NCBI GenBank assembly: GCA_964631135.1
Contig: CAZVVZ010000022.1
Location: forward strand, 1-13,506
Origin: an uncultured Eubacteriales bacterium
GTDB taxonomy: Bacteria; Bacillota; Clostridia; TANB77; RGIG9151
Reading direction: 5' to 3'
DNA: 13,506 nt
The translations under genes were made by a program, and so were the position numbers. The notes under the pieces were generated by a model. The model worked only from the letters and a program-made list of their open reading frames with translations, was not told the DNA's origin and searched no databases. Shown here piece after piece: positions 7,999-13,259 of this stretch; position 1 is the stretch's first letter, and each line of letters opens with the position of its first letter.

Positions 7999-8026
7999 GT
8001 ATTTCAGCAAAAATTTAGCTCTAGCG

Positions 8027-8170
8027 GTTACTGTTCAGACTACTATGCGAAAATAATATATATGTTTTAAAAGGAACGAATATTTGCAGAAAGACTTCCC
8101 GCATTTTTTAAGTCTTTCGTCGCAAATCCTGAGTTCCGGTAAAACGTATATATTATTTTCGCATAGTAAC
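8027..8170 (+). mobile_element. Hairpin repeat element, family 1, copy C (right arm shortened)
   Basis: nt 8030-8137 equal nt 13021-13129 of copy D except for one T in the loop T-run. The core is GAAT 8078-8081, ATTTGC 8082-8087, GTC 8119-8121, GCAAAT 8122-8127 and CCTGA 8128-8132. The right arm lacks 12 bp (GTCTGAACAGTA) relative to D. The flanks CTCTAGCG and CTCAAACG match at 6 of 8 positions. Confidence 0.85.
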
Positions 8171-8200
8171 CTCAAACGTGTTATTATTCAGGCTGATTGG

Positions 8201-8236: not shown

Positions 8237-8247
8237 CTATTTTAATG

Positions 8248-8434
8248 GAGGCTGCTGAAAAAGTCTTCGAAATAAAAAAATAGCACAGATGCCATATAGC
8301 TTAAAAGATGCGAATATTCACAGGAAAACATCCTATGATGTAGGATAAGAGGTTTCCGTCGTGAATCCTGAGCAACGTTAAACTATATGACATCTGTGCT
8401 ATTTTTTTATTTCGAAGACTTTTTCAGCAGCCTC
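8248..8434 (+). mobile_element. Hairpin repeat element, family 2, copy E (complete, 187 bp)
   Basis: A 43-bp perfect terminal inverted repeat runs GAGGCTGCTGAAAAAGTCTTCGAAATAAAAAAATAGCACAGATG ... CATCTGTGCTATTTTTTTATTTCGAAGACTTTTTCAGCAGCCTC. The core has the family 1 layout: GAAT 8312-8315, ATTCAC 8316-8321, GTC 8358-8360, GTGAAT 8361-8366 and CCTGA 8367-8371. It is flanked by the exact direct repeat ATTTTAATG at 8239-8247 and 8435-8443. Confidence 0.85.
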
Positions 8435-8493
8435 ATTTTAATGTTTCCTATTTAATTAAACCTAGCCAATAACTCTAGGATAAAAAAGCTTCG

Positions 8494-9228
8494 TCAAAGC
8501 TGAGGAATAAAGGTCGGCATCAATTGTAACTTAAATAAATTCCTATTATGCAATTCGTCAATCCTTTCTTTGATGCTTCCATCTTCTATTTCACCGGTAC
8601 GAATATATCTGTCTAAGACTGCATATGGAAATCCCAAATTATCCTCGTCTGTTTTCCCACATAAACCATCCTCTGGAACTTTATTAACTAATTTTGCAGG
8701 TAGATTTAACACTCTACCTATTTCTTTGATTTCAGTTACCGTAAGATTAGATAAAGGTGAAAAATCACCAACAGAGTCACCATATCTTGTTGAATATCCT
8801 ACCCAATCTTCAGATAAATTACAAGTATTTGCAACTCGTCCATTTAAGCTCTGCGAAACTGCATAAAGTGTAGACATTCTAATACGTGCGGGCAAATTTT
8901 CAACAGTTTGCTTAGTAATATTTATCTCAGCTTTTATCTTATCTAAAATACCGTCTATGCTATCTCTTATATTTACTACATAACTTTTTATTTCCAAATG
9001 ATTAACTAGCATATACGAATCACTTATATCCGCCTGTTCGCCATTTGGCATTAGTACACCAATAACTCTTTCTTTTCCCAATGCCTCTACGCATAGAGCC
9101 GCAACAATTGAACTATCTTTCCCACCAGAAATACCCACAATGGCATTGCAACCTTTCCCGTTTTTATCAAAGAAGCCCCTTATCCATTCTACACATTCAT
9201 TTTTTACTTTCATAGCATCAAACAACAT
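8494..9228 (-). CDS. nadE: NH3-dependent NAD+ synthetase
   Basis: The PP-loop motif GISGGKDSS is present, and the ~244 aa size is typical of single-domain NadE. The start ATG overlaps the nadV stop (TAATG at 9230-9226). Confidence 0.9.
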   Translation of the reverse strand: MLFDAMKVKNECVEWIRGFFDKNGKGCNAIVGISGGKDSSIVAALCVEALGKERVIGVLMPNGEQADISDSYMLVNHLEIKSYVVNIRDSIDGILDKIKAEINITKQTVENLPARIRMSTLYAVSQSLNGRVANTCNLSEDWVGYSTRYGDSVGDFSPLSNLTVTEIKEIGRVLNLPAKLVNKVPEDGLCGKTDEDNLGFPYAVLDRYIRTGEIEDGSIKERIDELHNRNLFKLQLMPTFIPQL

Positions 9229-10703
9229 TAAAATCTACCTCCGTGTAAAATATTTCTTATTTCGGACAAAGTCTGTTCTTTTATCATCTTGCCATCTTTA
9301 AAAACTGTAACTAATTCATTTTTTGCATTAGACGTAACTTCATTCCAATTAAATCCGTCTTTGTATATATAATTACCGCTCTCGTCTTTCGTAACTATGC
9401 AACAACCTTTTTGCGATTTCTTAAACCCGCCATCCTTTGGATTCTTAAATATAGGATAAGGAACATTATCAATCTCACAATAAGTCGCCTTAATACACGA
9501 ACTAAAAGTGTCTCTTGTAAAAGGCTTTAATATTCCGTTTTCTTCAATGCATTGCATTGAAAATGAACCAACTCCCAAAGCTACATTTGAGCAGGCAAAA
9601 CCATTATCCATAAGTATTTTATAAATATGTTCACATCTTTCAATAGTTATTGAATCACCATAAATAGCTTTTACATGTGGATCTAAAACTTTATATCCTT
9701 TACTATTAGTAGTTCCACCAAATTCGTCCCATAGTTTAAAAACTGTTTTAGTAACTACCTCGACACAATCACCCGAATCTCCACGCATTAGCATACAACC
9801 ATTGTGATTTAGTATTTCAGGTTTTAATTGAGGCAAAATATTGTCTATAACATTCCAATAATCATATGAATCAAGCACAGCAGAAAAACTTGTATTGGGA
9901 TATATTTCTGTTAATAACCTTCTTAGGAGAGTAATTTCATCTCCGTCAATCGCATAGTTACTACACATTACAGAGTGCTCCGTACTTGGACTTCCAAATG
10001 CAACTGCTTCCTTAGTACAATCACAATTATACATTTTTTCAAGATATGGAACGGTTGGAACCGTAGCAGTATTTAAAAATGATAAACACCACCCTGCGCC
10101 GGCTTTAATTGCAGACTGAGTACATTCCTCACCCCTAAAATCAAATGCGCCAAGAGCTTTTGACTTTGGAATATTATCATCGCAAGTAAGCTCGTAGTAT
10201 TTATCTACTATTTGCCTATATGTATATCCTACAGTTGCTGCAATCATAGGATGCCAACTTTCAGCCGAAATAAAACTTTCTAGCGATTGCGGAAGCCAAG
10301 CGAATTCAGGATGCGTATTTGTAATTCCAAACATTGGAACATGCATCGGGACTTTAGCCCCCTCTGGTAAAGCAACAATTTCAATAGGCAAATACCCCAA
10401 TTTATGAAGTTTTTCAATTTTTTCTATTTTATAGGCATCCTTCCCTAAAGTTGCATCCATAATTCTTCTATATTCACCTATTACTTCGTCAAATGGTTTA
10501 TTGAAAAATTCTTCATTAAAATAATCAATCAAATAGCTTTTTATAAATCCTTGAAGCCCAAACATAACAACCTTATCCCACATATCAACTCTGCTTAGTC
10601 TTGGAGTAAAATACGATACAGATTTTGTTATTTTTTCAGGTAACATTTCTGCATGTACAGCCTTATAAAAGTCTATAAGTAACATAGGATTAATTTTATT
10701 CAT
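9228..10703 (-). CDS. nadV: Nicotinamide phosphoribosyltransferase family protein (NAMPT/NadV-like)
   Basis: The N-terminal NPMLLIDFYKAVH matches the NAMPT (L)xTDSYKxxH signature. The ~490 aa size fits, and the gene sits in a NAD gene context. The track start at 10709 is a TTG inside the upstream gene. The ATG at 10703 follows AGAGGTG by 7 nt and overlaps the upstream stop (ATGAATAA). Confidence 0.88.
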   Translation of the reverse strand: MNKINPMLLIDFYKAVHAEMLPEKITKSVSYFTPRLSRVDMWDKVVMFGLQGFIKSYLIDYFNEEFFNKPFDEVIGEYRRIMDATLGKDAYKIEKIEKLHKLGYLPIEIVALPEGAKVPMHVPMFGITNTHPEFAWLPQSLESFISAESWHPMIAATVGYTYRQIVDKYYELTCDDNIPKSKALGAFDFRGEECTQSAIKAGAGWCLSFLNTATVPTVPYLEKMYNCDCTKEAVAFGSPSTEHSVMCSNYAIDGDEITLLRRLLTEIYPNTSFSAVLDSYDYWNVIDNILPQLKPEILNHNGCMLMRGDSGDCVEVVTKTVFKLWDEFGGTTNSKGYKVLDPHVKAIYGDSITIERCEHIYKILMDNGFACSNVALGVGSFSMQCIEENGILKPFTRDTFSSCIKATYCEIDNVPYPIFKNPKDGGFKKSQKGCCIVTKDESGNYIYKDGFNWNEVTSNAKNELVTVFKDGKMIKEQTLSEIRNILHGGRF

Positions 10704-11505
10704 AATCAAACACCTCTATTTTCTCATTATTTCCAGTAAATATTGTTTTTACAGTAAATACTTTCTCTATTTCCTTACCTTTAATTACTTCACCATCAAA
10801 AATTGTATTTTCACAATGTGTAACATACAAATAAATTTTATTTGCACCAAGCTCTTTTAATCTCTTAGCACTCAAATAAAAAGTACCACCACGGCTCGAA
10901 ATATCATCTATTATCAAAACATTTCCACCCTTAACCAATTCTGCTTGTCCCAATATATCAAGTCCACAAATCTCACCATTTTCCCAATTCCTTTTCTTCA
11001 TTCCAAAAGCATAAGGCTTATCTATCATTTTTGAATAGCGTTTCATTGCTCCTTCATCAGGATAAAACATAATTAAATTCTCGGACTCGTTTTTCACTTT
11101 TGAAATAGCCATTTCGATATATTTCTTTGGTGTTTCAACAATTATATTGTTAAATAACGCTTCACTTACATTAGAATGTGGGTCTAATACAGACACCGAT
11201 GTAAAATTTAAAAAATTTATAATTTCTGCAAAATACTTCAAAGTAAATACATCTTCATCATTTTTCACTCTGTCTTGCCTTGCATTTGGAATATATGGCA
11301 TTCTTAAATGAATATTTTTTATTCCATGGGAATTTAAGTGCTTTGTTAAATAGATAAGTGTAACCAATTCTTCATTGTTTTCAAAAAGCCATGTAATAGT
11401 TGCACTCCTAGCCTCAGAAAAATCTTTCGCAATGTTTTCTTTTAGCAAAATAGTTCCATCCGGAAATTTTTCATGGGTTATTATTTTATTATCTAATTTT
11501 ATCAT
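10696..11505 (-). CDS. Ribose-phosphate pyrophosphokinase (Prs) family protein, short divergent NadV-associated type
   Basis: Prs-like motifs are PYIPNARQDR (canonical PY.GYARQDR), LDPHS (canonical DLHA) and the PRPP/ribose-phosphate loop VLIIDDISSRGGT. At 269 aa it is shorter than the roughly 315 aa I recall for housekeeping Prs. The RBS GGAGA lies inside the pncA 3' end, 2 nt past the pncA stop. Confidence 0.8.
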   Translation of the reverse strand: MIKLDNKIITHEKFPDGTILLKENIAKDFSEARSATITWLFENNEELVTLIYLTKHLNSHGIKNIHLRMPYIPNARQDRVKNDEDVFTLKYFAEIINFLNFTSVSVLDPHSNVSEALFNNIIVETPKKYIEMAISKVKNESENLIMFYPDEGAMKRYSKMIDKPYAFGMKKRNWENGEICGLDILGQAELVKGGNVLIIDDISSRGGTFYLSAKRLKELGANKIYLYVTHCENTIFDGEVIKGKEIEKVFTVKTIFTGNNEKIEVFDYE

Positions 11506-12096: not shown

Positions 12097-12927
12097 TTAA
12101 CACTTTCTTCTAAAAAGCTTGGCTGGTCGATGACCCGCTCCGCTTTTATATTCATCTGTTTCAGTTACATATTCTGATATTTTCCTCCTAAAGTTACCTA
12201 CATACAATGATATATTTAATATTGCTTCTTGAACTTTTTGTAATTCATATAATGTAAATTTCTCTGGCAGGAAATCAAAAATTATATCGTAATTTTCTGC
12301 TTTATTCTTTAATAACATCAACGCAGTTGAAATTATTTGTGCATGATCAAAAGCCAGCTCACCCGGGTCTATTATTTTAAATTTGCTAATATTAAATTTT
12401 TTATTTTCTAATTTAAGAGAACTTTTAATTAAAGTTTCTTCGTTAGTAAGTTTTAACTCATATATATTATCTTCCTTTTGTTCTAAAGATACTTCAAACC
12501 ATCTAACATCTACCGAATCACCTCCACACTTTTCTTTTTCCAAATCATCCCCTACGATAGATAAATAAGCATTTGATATTATTCTTCCTCTTGGATCTCT
12601 ATCAATAGCACTAAATGTATCTACTAACATAAGTGAATTAGGAATTATATTAGTTTCCTCTTTTATTTCCCTATAAGCACACTCCTCAAGAGTCTCTTTT
12701 TGTCTCAAAAACCCTCCCGGCAATGCCCACTTATTTAAAAATGGGTACTCGCCTCTCCGAATAAGAAGTATCGATAAATGGCTCTTATTATTCTGACGAT
12801 AATTATATGAGTCCTCATCTTTCATTGTAAAAACAGCAATATCTGTCGCAACAGATGGTCTATCATAATTTTCTATTTTATAATTATCCAGAAAATTTTT
12901 TTCTTCATCTTTTTTTACTTTTGTCAT
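12097..12927 (-). CDS. nrtR: Nudix-related transcriptional regulator of NAD metabolism (N-terminal Nudix domain, C-terminal winged-helix domain)
   Basis: The Nudix box is GGFLRQKETLEECAYREIKEETNI. An additional ~100 aa C-terminal region (ELQKVQEAILNISLYVGNFRRKI...) is consistent with the NrtR wHTH. It is the first gene of a NAD salvage operon. The RBS GGAGA lies 6 nt before the ATG. Confidence 0.8.
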   Translation of the reverse strand: MTKVKKDEEKNFLDNYKIENYDRPSVATDIAVFTMKDEDSYNYRQNNKSHLSILLIRRGEYPFLNKWALPGGFLRQKETLEECAYREIKEETNIIPNSLMLVDTFSAIDRDPRGRIISNAYLSIVGDDLEKEKCGGDSVDVRWFEVSLEQKEDNIYELKLTNEETLIKSSLKLENKKFNISKFKIIDPGELAFDHAQIISTALMLLKNKAENYDIIFDFLPEKFTLYELQKVQEAILNISLYVGNFRRKISEYVTETDEYKSGAGHRPAKLFRRKC

Positions 12928-12957
12928 TGTTATTCTCCTTCTGATATTATCAATTTA

Positions 12958-12987
12958 ATAATAACACACGAATTATGTTTTTGTCAA
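12958..12987 (-). promoter_or_regulatory. Candidate sigma-A promoter of the nrtR-pncA-prs-nadV-nadE operon
   Basis: On the minus strand the promoter reads TTGACA (12987-12982), an 18-nt spacer ending in TGT, then TATTAT (12963-12958), i.e. an extended -10. It lies about 30 nt upstream of the nrtR ATG. Confidence 0.6.
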
Positions 12988-12999: not shown

Positions 13000-13016
13000 G
13001 TTATGTTTTATGCTAG

Positions 13017-13175
13017 GTTTACTGTTCAGACTACTATGCGAAAATAATATATATGTTTTAAAAGGAACGAATATTTGCAGAAAGACTTCCCGCATTTTTT
13101 TAAGTCTTTCGTCGCAAATCCTGAGTTCCTTTTAAAACATATATATTATTTTCGCATAGTAGTCTGAACAGTAGC
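13017..13175 (+). mobile_element. Hairpin repeat element, family 1, copy D (complete, 159 bp)
   Basis: A 49-bp perfect stem pairs 13020-13068 with 13125-13173. The core is GAAT 13069-13072, ATTTGC 13073-13078, A 13079, GAAAGACTT 13080-13088, AAGTCTTTC 13102-13110, GTC 13111-13113, GCAAAT 13114-13119 and CCTGA 13120-13124. It is flanked by the exact direct repeat TATGCTAG at 13009-13016 and 13176-13183. Confidence 0.88.
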
Positions 13176-13259
13176 TATGCTAGTTGCTATTCAAACTTGA
13201 TTTAATAAAACTTAGTATTTAAGCCACTCACAACAATAATTTCTTTTCGGAAAAATATT

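Follow-up and report, generated by a model that had tools for sequence, protein, structure and literature searches.

The window analyzed here, which is the whole stretch of 13,506 nt from contig CAZVVZ010000022.1 (assembly GCA_964631135.1) of an uncultured Eubacteriales bacterium, carries a short Prs-like gene coupled to a NAMPT-like gene, and the question it raises is whether this pair supplies PRPP to a conventional NAD salvage route or rebuilds NAD from ADP-ribose (ADPR). The latter is what Adps and Namat, the two enzymes of the NARP1 pathway, do in phages SPbetaL1, Bas63 and ICP1 (bioRxiv 10.1101/2024.02.11.579819; structures in PMC12774641 and PMC13586617), and a sequence-only reading of this DNA had proposed that the pair could be a chromosomal module joining ADPR and nicotinamide into NAD+. 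Because a nicotinamidase and an NAD synthetase accompany this Adps/Namat-like pair, NAD is probably rebuilt through nicotinic acid and deamido-NAD.

Layout of the operon

The five genes follow the order nrtR-pncA-adps-namat*-nadE (namat* being the Namat-variant gene), all on the minus strand and forming one tight operon:

12097-12927, minus strand: nrtR, Nudix-related transcriptional regulator, 276 aa
11508-12038, minus strand: pncA, nicotinamidase, 176 aa
10696-11505, minus strand: adps-like gene, Prs fold, predicted ADP-ribose pyrophosphokinase, 269 aa
10696-10703, minus strand: 8-nt overlap between the end of adps and the beginning of namat*, ATGAATAA, read from the sequence
9228-10703, minus strand: Namat-variant gene, NAMPT-like, predicted nicotinate ADP-ribosyltransferase, 491 aa
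8494-9228, minus strand: nadE, NH3-dependent NAD synthetase, 244 aa

A 2-nt gap separates pncA from adps (TAG-TT-ATG), the end of adps (GAT TAT GAA TAA) overlaps the start of namat* (ATG AAT AAA) by the 8 nt of ATGAATAA, and namat* and nadE share 1 nt (TAATG). The adps/namat* geometry is the same in many related loci (Adps ORF ending at 8008, Namat match starting at 8001). The 269-aa and 491-aa genes with overlapping stop and start, 3' of an NrtR gene, are thus read in the sequence as they had been described earlier, whereas the view of the pair as the whole module has to be given up, PncA and NadE being part of the same co-directional overlapping gene string. The ORF listing extends the NAMPT-like frame to a TTG at 10709 (493 aa), and the ATG at 10703 yields the 491-aa product, identical to database protein P0001. 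About 7,300 homologues at E <= 1e-30 and the recurrence of the five-gene arrangement in nearly all of 80 genomes indicate that the ORFs of the operon are not chance ORFs. No ORF of the window contains the nucleotidyltransferase motif G.F.P.H.GH (HxGH type), in agreement with the earlier remark that the operon has no NMN adenylyltransferase.

Lineage and active sites of the Prs-like and NAMPT-like proteins

The Prs-like protein carries the three motifs that had been pointed out in it (YIPNARQDR, LDPHS and the PP loop LIIDDISSRGGTF). It matches SPbetaL1 Adps at 42% identity (166 bits, E 7e-55), whereas solved PRPP synthetases reach at most 63 bits, and it scores below cutoff with all 11 NCBIfam ribose-phosphate diphosphokinase models (for example, 96.5 against 296). 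Its score with TIGR01251 is 107.9 (cutoff 113), the validated Adps proteins of SPbetaL1 and ICP1 scoring 106 and 98, respectively. Its gene lies directly beside the NAMPT-like gene, as in the Adps clade, 97% of which has an immediately adjacent Namat homologue (Osterman et al., bioRxiv 10.1101/2024.02.11.579819). By these comparisons the protein groups with validated phage Adps and not with PRPP synthetase, a choice that the sequence-only reading had left to such a placement. Residues F18, R87, H121, D161, K185, D212 and D213 (ICP1 numbering) are present and are kept in 78-79 of the 79 cassette homologues; however, R87, H121, D161, D212, D213 and the equivalent of K185 are also conserved in PRPP synthetases (PRPS; PMC13586617), so that a test on these residues does not separate the two families. 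Adps is further marked by a PP loop remodelled to bind the ATP donor and by lack of the C-terminal regulatory module alpha11-alpha12. The PP loop DDISSRGGTF resembles that of SPbetaL1 Adps (DDLSSFGGTF) but also that of archaeal class III PRPS (DDIISTGGT), and the length of 269 aa is near that of Adps (272-280 aa) but not far from that of archaeal PRPS (284-291 aa). Together with the shared residues, the loop means that sequence features alone do not exclude PRPP synthesis. Adps itself showed no Prs-type activity in vitro, PRPP and ATP giving no product (bioRxiv 10.1101/2024.02.11.579819).

The NAMPT-like protein is 45% identical to SPbetaL1 Namat, its best matches among solved structures are the Namat entries 9W5X and 9W5W (401 bits), and it scores 302 bits with Haemophilus NadV and about 160 bits with human NAMPT. 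The AlphaFold2 model (pLDDT 95.1) superposes on Namat with a Foldseek TM of 0.92 and an rmsd of 1.7 A. Catalytic core residues of the NAMPT family are invariant, with D13, Y15, F189, R192, the His, R306, D308 and R399 shared with phage NARP1. The fold (TM 0.86-0.88), the catalytic His and the ribose-phosphate residues are also those of Haemophilus ducreyi NadV (9KE8) and human NAMPT, but NadV has Asp at position 215, lacks the clamp (Glu at 40 and Ala at 392 in the alignment) and needs an NMN adenylyltransferase, for which the window has no candidate. On sequence grounds, then, the protein groups with validated Namat and not with NMN-forming NadV, the lineage suspected earlier. The sites in which it differs from Namat, or in which the clamp is kept, are the following:

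10590-10592, minus strand: codon of Arg38 (Namat Arg40, adenine-stacking residue of the clamp loop), from alignment
10065-10067, minus strand: codon of Ala213 (SPbetaL1 Namat Asp215, human NAMPT Asp219), from alignment
9984-9986, minus strand: codon of Ser240 (SPbetaL1 Namat Ala242, which lines the pyridine pocket), Ser in 82/82
9561-9563, minus strand: codon of Phe381 (Namat Phe392, which stacks on adenine and the AMP ribose), from alignment
9522-9548, minus strand: IEENGILKP, nine residues inserted into the helix motif of the adenine clamp, GSFSMQC[IEENGILKP]FTRD against GSFTYQYNTRD in Namat

In Namat, Asp215 hydrogen-bonds the amide of nicotinamide, as Asp219 does in human NAMPT. All 82 close homologues have Ala at position 215, and the subfamily as a whole has either Ala or Ser there; in the canonical Namat proteins sampled the residue is Asp, with a single Glu. 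Positions 215 and 242 covary in an alignment of 153 sequences, made up of 150 representatives at 50% identity, SPbetaL1, the window protein and L002, Asp going with Ala, and Ala or Ser with Ser, with three exceptions (Gly242 in P0128 and P0225, Val215 in P0131). A neighbour-joining tree built without the diagnostic columns has one split with all 48 variants on one side and all 97 canonical sequences on the other. Judged from these alignments, the Namat homologue belongs to a separate A|S215/S242 subfamily and is the new element of the operon. NAD formation from nicotinamide falls 8.1-fold when Asp215 of SPbetaL1 Namat is mutated to Ala (D215A; PMC12774641). According to the listing in PMC4919578, the human NAMPT mutant D219S switches substrate affinity (citing Khan 2006) and D219A is inactive, so that Ala at this site is by itself no proof of nicotinate use.

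The adenine clamp is partly kept. The third position of the clamp loop (SCL) is expected to be Arg, Lys or Tyr, and Arg38 fits; among the variant proteins, the equivalent of Arg40 is Arg in 77 of the 79 bacterial and in 49 of the 58 viral ones, and that of Phe392 is Phe in all 138. Joint loss of R40 and F392 is the most damaging clamp mutation of Namat (16.6-fold). The strict helix motif is not found: its position 3 is Phe, but its position 7 (Tyr396) is Cys, and the insertion interrupts it as a modelled ordered beta-hairpin (strands 385-388 and 391-394, pLDDT 90-94). Insertions of at least 5 residues are found at this place in all 138 variant proteins for which context was available, against 1 of 112 canonical proteins. 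The change of Tyr396 to Cys together with the hairpin could instead mean that specificity for ADPR-PP is relaxed or lost.

Companion genes, distribution and control

The nicotinamidase matches the Pfam Isochorismatase family (1e-22), its best solved relative being the Pyrococcus pyrazinamidase/nicotinamidase 1ILW, and both its triad (D9/K94/C123) and its metal site (D47/H49/H66) are invariant among 122 cassette homologues. NadE matches Pfam NAD_synthase (2e-51) and TIGR00552 with 172 bits (cutoff 63.65). Both genes lie within 10 kb of 120 of the 138 variant proteins, whereas none of 112 canonical Namat loci has PncA or NadE within that distance. This linkage survives changes of gene order (PncA on either side of the pair) and the swap, in about 10 related loci, of the short NadE for the long, glutamine-dependent CN_hydrolase+NAD_synthase form. 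An HxGH-type adenylyltransferase motif was found in only 3 of 188 loci searched, all three with the NadR-type, NMN-side domain architecture. The four-gene cassette without NrtR is also present in phage contigs, and at 18 of 59 viral or phage-database variant loci a macro-domain ORF resembling Adpp, the NARP1-associated ADPR-1P phosphatase, lies within 10 kb, most often abutting the 3' side of namat*; these ORFs count in favour of ADPR as the feedstock. Clustering of the variant proteins gives 10 groups at 70% identity and 2 at 50%, which are few deep lineages, and the linkage statistics may go back to just one or two events in their ancestry.

The regulator matches NrtR_WHD (PF21906, 4e-18) and NUDIX (PF00293, 7e-18), both above cutoff, and scores 121.7 bits with the NCBIfam ADPR-responsive repressor model, under its equivalog cutoff of 400; its earlier assignment to the NrtR type, an ADPR-responsive family standing 5' of the pair, agrees with these domains. 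An NrtR gene was found at 64 of the 79 bacterial loci with the variant, and at none of the 58 viral ones. Two candidate control elements overlap in front of it:

12958-12987, minus strand: promoter-like site TTGACA-18-TG-TATTAT directly 5' of nrtR, from a consensus scan
12945-12963, no strand: palindrome TATTATCAATTTAATAATA as candidate operator of NrtR, overlapping the -10 box, exact match to TATTAT-N7-ATAATA

The promoter-like site has 11 of 12 consensus matches and an extended -10, and sites of this kind are as frequent in the region as expected from shuffled sequence; for TATTAT-N7-ATAATA with at most one mismatch, 0.43 matches are expected by chance in the window. Of 80 related loci, 44 have the candidate box (consensus TATTATCAAAATGATAATA) no more than 250 nt 5' of the cluster's first gene, against a background density of 0.09 per kb, and it is often doubled there as two sites 38 nt apart. 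Operators of NrtR regulons are 21-bp palindromes and ADPR is the effector of NrtR; the box conserved at the cluster promoter, TATTATC-N5-GATAATA, is without the GT-N7-AC core that has been described for the majority of NrtR groups.

A proposed deamido route to NAD and its alternatives

Placing these results together, we somewhat favor the operon being a self-contained, ADPR-inducible loop. NrtR would repress it at the palindromic box over the -10 and, as in its family, release it when ADPR accumulates; PncA, with its intact catalytic and metal sites, would deamidate nicotinamide to nicotinate; the Adps homologue would, as its clade suggests, convert ADPR and ATP to ADPR-PP; the Namat variant would join ADPR-PP to nicotinate, rather than to nicotinamide, giving nicotinate adenine dinucleotide (NaAD) directly; and NadE would amidate NaAD to NAD. 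Nicotinate use by the variant is suggested by the remodelled pocket (Ala in place of Asp, Ser in place of Ala), the kept clamp (Arg38, Phe381, TRD) and the genomic linkage. We infer all substrate assignments from sequence, model and context, and the reaction of nicotinate with ADPR-PP to NaAD was found in no paper. In phages the four-gene cassette would serve as an NAD-reconstitution counter-defence.

The conventional explanation is Preiss-Handler salvage, in which a dedicated PRPP synthetase would feed a NaMN-forming nicotinate phosphoribosyltransferase, with NadD encoded elsewhere and NadE completing the route. PncA and NadE are the context typical of such operons under NrtR, the pyridine-site change would fit nicotinate use here as well, the adenine clamp is altered by the loss of Tyr396 and the inserted hairpin, Namat also uses PRPP in vitro (Osterman et al., bioRxiv 10.1101/2024.02.11.579819), the PP loop is like that of archaeal PRPS, and a near-universal host NadD could supply the step missing from the operon, a point that bears directly against the deamido loop. 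The NAMPT-like protein also matches NCBIfam NF006629, named nicotinate phosphoribosyltransferase; however, validated Namat matches this model even better (594 and 488 bits), so that its name carries no information. The explanation is made unlikely by the grouping of the Prs-like protein with Adps and under all PRPS cutoffs, by the retention in nearly all variants of R40 and F392, which true NadV lacks, by the linkage of NadE but never of NadD, phages included, and by the ADPR-processing macro-domain genes embedded in viral cassettes.

Canonical NARP1, with nicotinamide and ADPR-PP giving NAD and with PncA and NadE as a separate salvage branch of the same regulon, would agree with the lineage of the pair, with ADPR as the NrtR effector and with the functional chromosomal NARP1 of Paenibacillus foliorum, but appears quite improbable. 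Asp215 is replaced here by the very residue that impairs the phage enzyme, PncA would use up the nicotinamide that this route needs, both PncA and NadE occur with the variant subfamily even in NrtR-less phage contigs and never with canonical Namat, and the translational coupling continues from namat* into nadE. The module proposed by the sequence-only reading is thus NARP1-like in kind, both proteins falling with the Adps and Namat clades, while its direct joining of nicotinamide is unlikely on account of Ala at Asp215, the loss measured for D215A, the removal of nicotinamide by PncA and the presence of NadE, needed only for a deamido product. Little probability is also left for an enzyme of relaxed specificity feeding several branches by accepting nicotinate and nicotinamide, and/or ADPR-PP and PRPP. 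In vitro, Namat itself already takes two ribosyl donors, and there are crystal structures of human NAMPT with nicotinic acid and with NaMN (6TA0, 6TA2), but the invariant pairing of Ala|Ser215 with Ser242 and the linkage to PncA and NadE speak for commitment to a deamido product.

Comparison with known systems locates what is new under the deamido loop. The operon shares with phage NARP1 the adjacent, translationally coupled Prs-fold and NAMPT-fold genes, the clamp elements R40, F392 and TRD, and Namat as closest solved structure; it departs from it in the pyridine pocket, the clamp helix and the PncA and NadE companions, and its Namat variant is predicted to make NaAD instead of NAD. Chromosomal NARP1 is not a new idea, having been noted by Osterman et al. 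and in the AntiDefenseFinder survey (10.1101/2024.08.21.608784), and shown biochemically for pfAdps/pfNamat of P. foliorum (PMC12774641). The present operon likewise lies in a chromosome and not in a prophage, and a housekeeping function in NAD/ADPR homeostasis is proposed. However, pfNamat, 71.9% identical to SPbetaL1 Namat and making NAD from nicotinamide (PMC12774641), is of the canonical type, unlike the window protein of the A|S215/S242 clade, whose operon adds NrtR, PncA and NadE. What is new is the Namat-variant subfamily with PncA and NadE in a gut-Clostridia operon.

The nrtR-pncA-pncB-nadD-nadE operon of Clostridium acetobutylicum (PMC2330246) has the same regulator family, PncA as first and NadE as last enzyme, and induction of nicotinamide recycling through nicotinate by the ADPR signal. 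In the window, adps and namat* would take the place of the absent pncB and nadD of the classical route, and the ribosyl-adenylate part would hence come from ADPR and not from PRPP and ATP. The gamma-proteobacterial prs-nadV operons (Shewanella, Acinetobacter) also combine a Prs paralogue and a NAMPT-family gene under NrtR, but without pncA or nadE; their dedicated Prs paralogue was called unexplained (Rodionov et al. 2008, PMC2330246), and Acinetobacter is where AntiDefenseFinder most often detects NARP1 (10.1101/2024.08.21.608784).

Organization and regulation of the operon

The NAMPT-like gene lies in a single tight string of five co-directional genes, preceded by a promoter-like site and a palindrome:

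12958-12987, minus strand: promoter-like site TTGACA-18-TG-TATTAT, a consensus match just 5' of nrtR
12945-12963: palindrome TATTATCAATTTAATAATA, a candidate NrtR operator overlapping the -10 box
12097-12927, minus strand: nrtR, 276 aa
11508-12038, minus strand: pncA, 176 aa
10696-11505, minus strand: Prs-like (adps-like) gene, 269 aa
9228-10703, minus strand: NAMPT-like gene (variant namat), 491 aa from the ATG at 10703
8494-9228, minus strand: nadE, 244 aa

The pncA and Prs-like genes are separated by a 2-nt gap (TAG-TT-ATG), the Prs-like and NAMPT-like genes overlap by 8 nt (ATGAATAA) and the NAMPT-like gene and nadE by 1 nt (TAATG). In its longest form the NAMPT-like ORF opens at a TTG at 10709, two codons 5' of the ATG, and encodes 493 aa; the start at 10703 gives the overlap just described and a 491-aa product identical to the database entry (P0001). 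The sequence-only reading had noted a Prs-like gene overlapping a NAMPT-like gene under an NrtR regulator, and was right in all details; the recycling module that it drew from this pair left out pncA and nadE, which belong to the same string. The locus looks chromosomal, with neighbours that, to judge by eye from their translations alone, are housekeeping genes (aspartokinase, DnaD-/DnaC-like replication proteins, a Tex-like protein and a type IA topoisomerase).

The regulator carries NUDIX and NrtR_WHD domains, and repression by NrtR is known to be relieved by ADP-ribose (ADPR) (Rodionov et al. 2008, PMC2330246). In 44 of 80 loci the palindrome consensus TATTATC-N5-GATAATA precedes the opening gene of the cluster, in many cases as a pair spaced 38 nt apart, and its background density is 0.09 per kb. 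The palindrome agrees with the 21-bp symmetry reported for NrtR sites and lacks their usual GT-N7-AC core, so that we regard the window site as a candidate operator only. The Nudix box of the window NrtR (residues 72-94, 12646-12714; GFLRQKETLEECAYREIKEETNI) keeps an intact G-x5-E-x7-RE-U-x-EE core and deviates only in the final Gly, and the NrtRs of the 2008 study had perturbed Nudix boxes and no activity (PMC2330246); the window protein might retain ADPR hydrolysis, in competition with Adps. PncA has an isochorismatase fold, with Pyrococcus nicotinamidase as its closest solved relative, and its nicotinamidase Asp-Lys-Cys triad and Asp-His-His metal site are invariant across 122 cassette homologues. 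NadE scores above the cutoff of the curated TIGR00552 model.

Repeated elements surround the operon. The window contains four copies of a repeated palindrome, about 155 nt in full length and of MITE- or REP-type appearance (1-66, truncated at the edge; 1524-1676; 8028-8175; 13019-13173), and the last two copies, which flank the NAD operon on both sides, have an identical 82-nt stretch in common. One copy (13015-13178) is predicted to fold as a single long hairpin (-60.8 kcal/mol, z = -20). A search of the window against Rfam gave zero matches, this repeat included, and the flanking repeat was found in none of 286 related loci. A second, unrelated inverted repeat (8241-8441; 64-nt arms, 92% complementary, 73 nt apart) follows the stop codon of nadE, ahead of the downstream copy of the 155-nt repeat, and may be a terminator or another mobile palindrome.

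Lineage of the Prs-like and NAMPT-like proteins

The sequence-only reading had suggested placing both proteins against the families between which it could not choose, and this comparison put the first with Adps rather than Prs and the second nearer to Namat than to NadV. The Prs-like protein matches Adps of SPbetaL1 (42% identity, E 7e-55, 166 bits), for which synthesis of ADPR-PP was demonstrated (Osterman et al., 10.1101/2024.02.11.579819), while no solved PRPP synthetase (PRPS) exceeds 63 bits. It falls below every curated PRPP synthetase threshold, and in the case of TIGR01251 (cutoff 113) its score of 107.9 is accompanied by those of the validated Adps proteins, likewise below the cutoff (SPbetaL1, 106; ICP1, 98). 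All residues of ICP1 Adps for ADPR binding and transfer catalysis are kept, several of them being conserved in PRPS as well (PMC13586617). Neither the PP loop nor the shortness of the protein served to tell Adps from PRPS, archaeal PRPS being alike in both. Weighed together, the Adps match, the weak PRPS scores and the TIGR01251 result make placement in the Adps lineage well supported at the sequence level, and membership of this clade suggests ADPR as the substrate.

The top PDB matches of the NAMPT-like protein are 9W5X and 9W5W (401 bits), both of them SPbetaL1 Namat (PMC12774641), compared with 302 bits for Haemophilus ducreyi NadV (HdNadV) and about 160 bits for human NAMPT. Its AlphaFold2 model (pLDDT 95.1) gives TM scores of 0.92, 0.88 and 0.86 with Namat, HdNadV and human NAMPT, respectively, and the catalytic core is complete. 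From the adenine "selectivity clamp" defined for Namat (PMC12774641), the protein retains Arg40, Phe392 and Thr-Arg-Asp 398-400 (SPbetaL1 Namat numbering, here and below), whereas HdNadV has Glu at 40 and Ala at 392; the double loss R40A/F392G is the worst clamp mutation in Namat, with a 16.6-fold effect (PMC12774641). Tyr396 is replaced by Cys, followed by a 9-residue insertion (window protein residues 386-394) modelled as an ordered beta-hairpin. Three other Namat homologues (P0157, P0212 and P0262) carry insertions of about 290 residues exactly within the clamp motif (GSFC...SHNTYQMNTRD), which start with Cys, end with SHN+T and are intein-like. Many further homologues are 550-900 aa long, with two separated match stretches and a break near query residue 318.

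The pyridine pocket and linkage to PncA and NadE

In SPbetaL1 Namat, Asp215 makes a hydrogen bond to the nicotinamide amide and Ala242 belongs to the same pocket lining; in the window protein they are replaced by Ala213 and Ser240, respectively. We take Asp215 to be the counterpart of Asp219 of human NAMPT, by alignment. Ala at 215 together with Ser at 242 is present in 82 of 82 close homologues. A further alignment took in 153 sequences (150 representatives of 50%-identity clusters from 1.8 billion proteins, with SPbetaL1, the window protein and the protein of a related locus, L002), in which position 215 is Asp in 96, Ala in 35, Ser in 18, Val in one and Glu in one, two being gapped. The two positions covary, Asp occurring with Ala242 and Ala or Ser with Ser242, with three exceptions (Gly at 242 in P0128 and P0225; Val at 215 in P0131). 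A neighbour-joining tree built without columns 215 and 242 and without the clamp motif has one split that parts all 48 full-length variants from all 97 canonical proteins. Intermediate sequences, namely P0141, P0148, P0152 and P0161, join Ala or Ser at 215 and Ser at 242 to a canonical clamp motif, and an IMG/VR search with P0141 and P0148 found nothing nearer to them than 47% identity. The D215A mutation in SPbetaL1 Namat lowers NAD formation from nicotinamide 8.1-fold (PMC12774641), and among the human NAMPT mutants listed in PMC4919578, D219S is given as switching substrate affinity, D219A as inactive. As read from its sequence, the window protein lacks two defining features of Namat, Asp215 and the strict clamp motif, and plain annotation as Namat is therefore unsuitable.

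The genomic context of the two classes was compared in a census of 80 genome loci (Lachnospiraceae, Roseburia, Acetatifactor, Ruminococcus, Filifactor and Oscillospiraceae, including the cultured strains Konateibacter massiliensis Marseille-P3773, L066, and Filifactor villosus CCUG 46385, L067), about 200 IMG/VR contigs and four phage records, whose ORFs were searched with HMMs made from the cassette proteins. Among 138 distinct variant proteins (Ala or Ser at 215, Ser at 242), 120 have PncA and NadE within 10 kb, and most of the remaining 18 lie on short or truncated contigs. The canonical class (Asp or Glu at 215, Ala at 242; n = 112), of which about 80 loci came from IMG/VR scans with P0141 and P0148, has Adps in 106 cases and PncA or NadE within 10 kb in none. 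Fisher's P for the association is 2e-52, but the samples are related; clustering at 70% identity leaves 10 variant clusters, all linked, and 76 canonical clusters, none linked, and at 50% identity only 2 variant and 14 canonical clusters remain. PncA lies 5' of the pair in most variant loci and 3' of NadE in one phage group, and about ten genomes have, at the position of the short NH3-dependent NadE, a glutamine-dependent CN_hydrolase plus NAD_synthase protein of about 650-675 aa (L043:9806-11833, with equivalents in L044, L046, L048, L049, L052, L055, L059, L061 and L063). It is because the linkage is kept despite these changes in gene order that we find it persuasive.

Of 79 bacterial variant loci 64 contain NrtR, whereas none of the 58 viral variant loci does. 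Some IMG/VR contigs may be misassigned bacterial DNA, but the complete absence of NrtR argues that most of those with the variant are a distinct phage-borne population. In MT835544, the sole GenBank record of phage type, strong PHROG matches flank the cassette. Alicyclobacillus phage KKP_3916, the top cultured-phage match, was looked at separately from the census and rejected as a carrier, having the canonical Asp/Ala pair without PncA or NadE; the cultured-phage search yielded no carrier of the variant cassette. A macro-domain gene (PF01661; L002:7717-8190, L129:11506-11964 and other viral variant loci; L021:2813-3268) lies within 10 kb of the variant gene in 18 of 59 viral or phage-database loci and in one bacterial locus, directly adjoining it in about a dozen and in many phage cassettes standing between it and nadE. 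Its product resembles Adpp, the macro-domain ADPR-1P phosphatase (ADPR-1P to ADPR) that a 2026 preprint describes in NARP1 operons and ties to anti-aRES activity; this would fit ADPR as what the cassette feeds on.

A proposed NaAD-forming pathway, its alternatives and known systems

Taking all these results, we favour with modest confidence the view that the NAMPT-fold variant is a nicotinate ADP-ribosyltransferase converting nicotinate and ADPR-PP to NaAD in one step, and that with PncA, Adps and NadE it closes a four-enzyme NAD repair loop bypassing PncB and the near-universal NadD, common to gut and rumen Clostridia (with ADPR-sensing NrtR) and to their large phages (without NrtR, often with the macro-domain phosphatase, in counter-defence). 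NAD-consuming enzymes, as is established, set free ADPR and nicotinamide; ADPR would release NrtR, as the family suggests; PncA, judging by its active site, would convert nicotinamide to nicotinate; Adps, by its clade, would form ADPR-PP from ADPR and ATP; the variant, by its pocket, clamp and context, would form NaAD and PPi from nicotinate and ADPR-PP; and NadE, by its family, would convert NaAD to NAD. We infer this mechanism from gene content, sequence features and co-occurrence. In the searchable literature, in which subscription journals are incompletely covered, we found neither the central reaction nor any work tying NARP1, Namat or ADPR-PP to NadE, nicotinamidase, NaAD or nicotinic acid.

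The variant could instead use PRPP to form NaMN (Preiss-Handler), which host NadD would then finish. Loss of Tyr396 and insertion of the hairpin may reflect a less strict choice of donor, and Namat accepts PRPP in vitro (10.1101/2024.02.11.579819). Such a route needs NadD, and the cassette contains NadE, which is equally a housekeeping enzyme, and never NadD, even in phages, bypass of the NadD step being thus the simplest explanation; we consider the PRPP route rather unlikely. The sequence-only reading had stated that the operon has no NMN adenylyltransferase, and a scan of the window for the NadD/NMNAT motif G.F.P.H.GH indeed returned nothing. Across 188 loci the scan gave three matches, all NadR-type (cytidylyltransferase-like plus AAA_28) and just 3' of nrtR in Acetatifactor/Lachnospiraceae (L009:11863-12906, L022:11901-12941, L041:5836-6846). 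We rejected them as the missing step, their domain architecture being on the NMN rather than the NaMN side; they suggest that the NrtR regulon at these loci also covers nicotinamide riboside salvage.

Direct joining of nicotinamide to ADPR-PP, which the sequence-only reading had put forward, is disfavoured by the replacement of Asp215 with the very residue that weakens SPbetaL1 Namat. We accordingly hold canonical NARP1, with PncA and NadE as an unrelated branch, to be improbable, and give a bispecific enzyme a similarly slim chance.

NARP1 itself has been published for phages and bacterial chromosomes (10.1101/2024.02.11.579819; PMC12774641; 10.1101/2024.08.21.608784), and what is new here is best filed as the variant type of the window operon; the chromosomal NARP1 assayed in Paenibacillus foliorum (PMC12774641) has, unlike the window, a canonical Namat. 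In the Clostridium acetobutylicum operon nrtR-pncA-pncB-nadD-nadE (PMC2330246), pncB-nadD occupies the place held here by the adps-like and variant genes. If the nicotinate proposal is true, the reaction would be new to NAD biochemistry, and the route would join NARP1, NARP2 and NARP3 as a fourth kind of pathway for reconstituting NAD. It would also help to account for dedicated Prs paralogues under ADPR control, such as that of the NrtR-regulated prs-nadV of Acinetobacter and Shewanella, called unexplained in 2008 (PMC2330246); AntiDefenseFinder reports NARP1 most often in Acinetobacter (469 occurrences; 10.1101/2024.08.21.608784). Being common among gut Lachnospiraceae, Ruminococcus and Filifactor of humans and animals, and among the phages of these bacteria, the cassette bears on the niacin and NAD economy of the microbiome and on how phages evade immune systems that deplete NAD.

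Current family models do not capture these distinctions. The window protein scores 434 bits on NCBIfam NF006629 (PRK09198; cutoff 405), named "nicotinate phosphoribosyltransferase", and validated Namat proteins score 594 and 488 (L001:2974-4449, L083:3221-4687). Since validated Namat passes with higher scores, we set this name aside as evidence for the window protein and regard it as wrong or uninformative for the NadV/Namat group. NadV, Namat and the variant are not separable by NF006629, by PHROGs or, probably, by AntiDefenseFinder; a simple rule to tell the variant is to read alignment positions 215 and 242 together with the PncA/NadE context.
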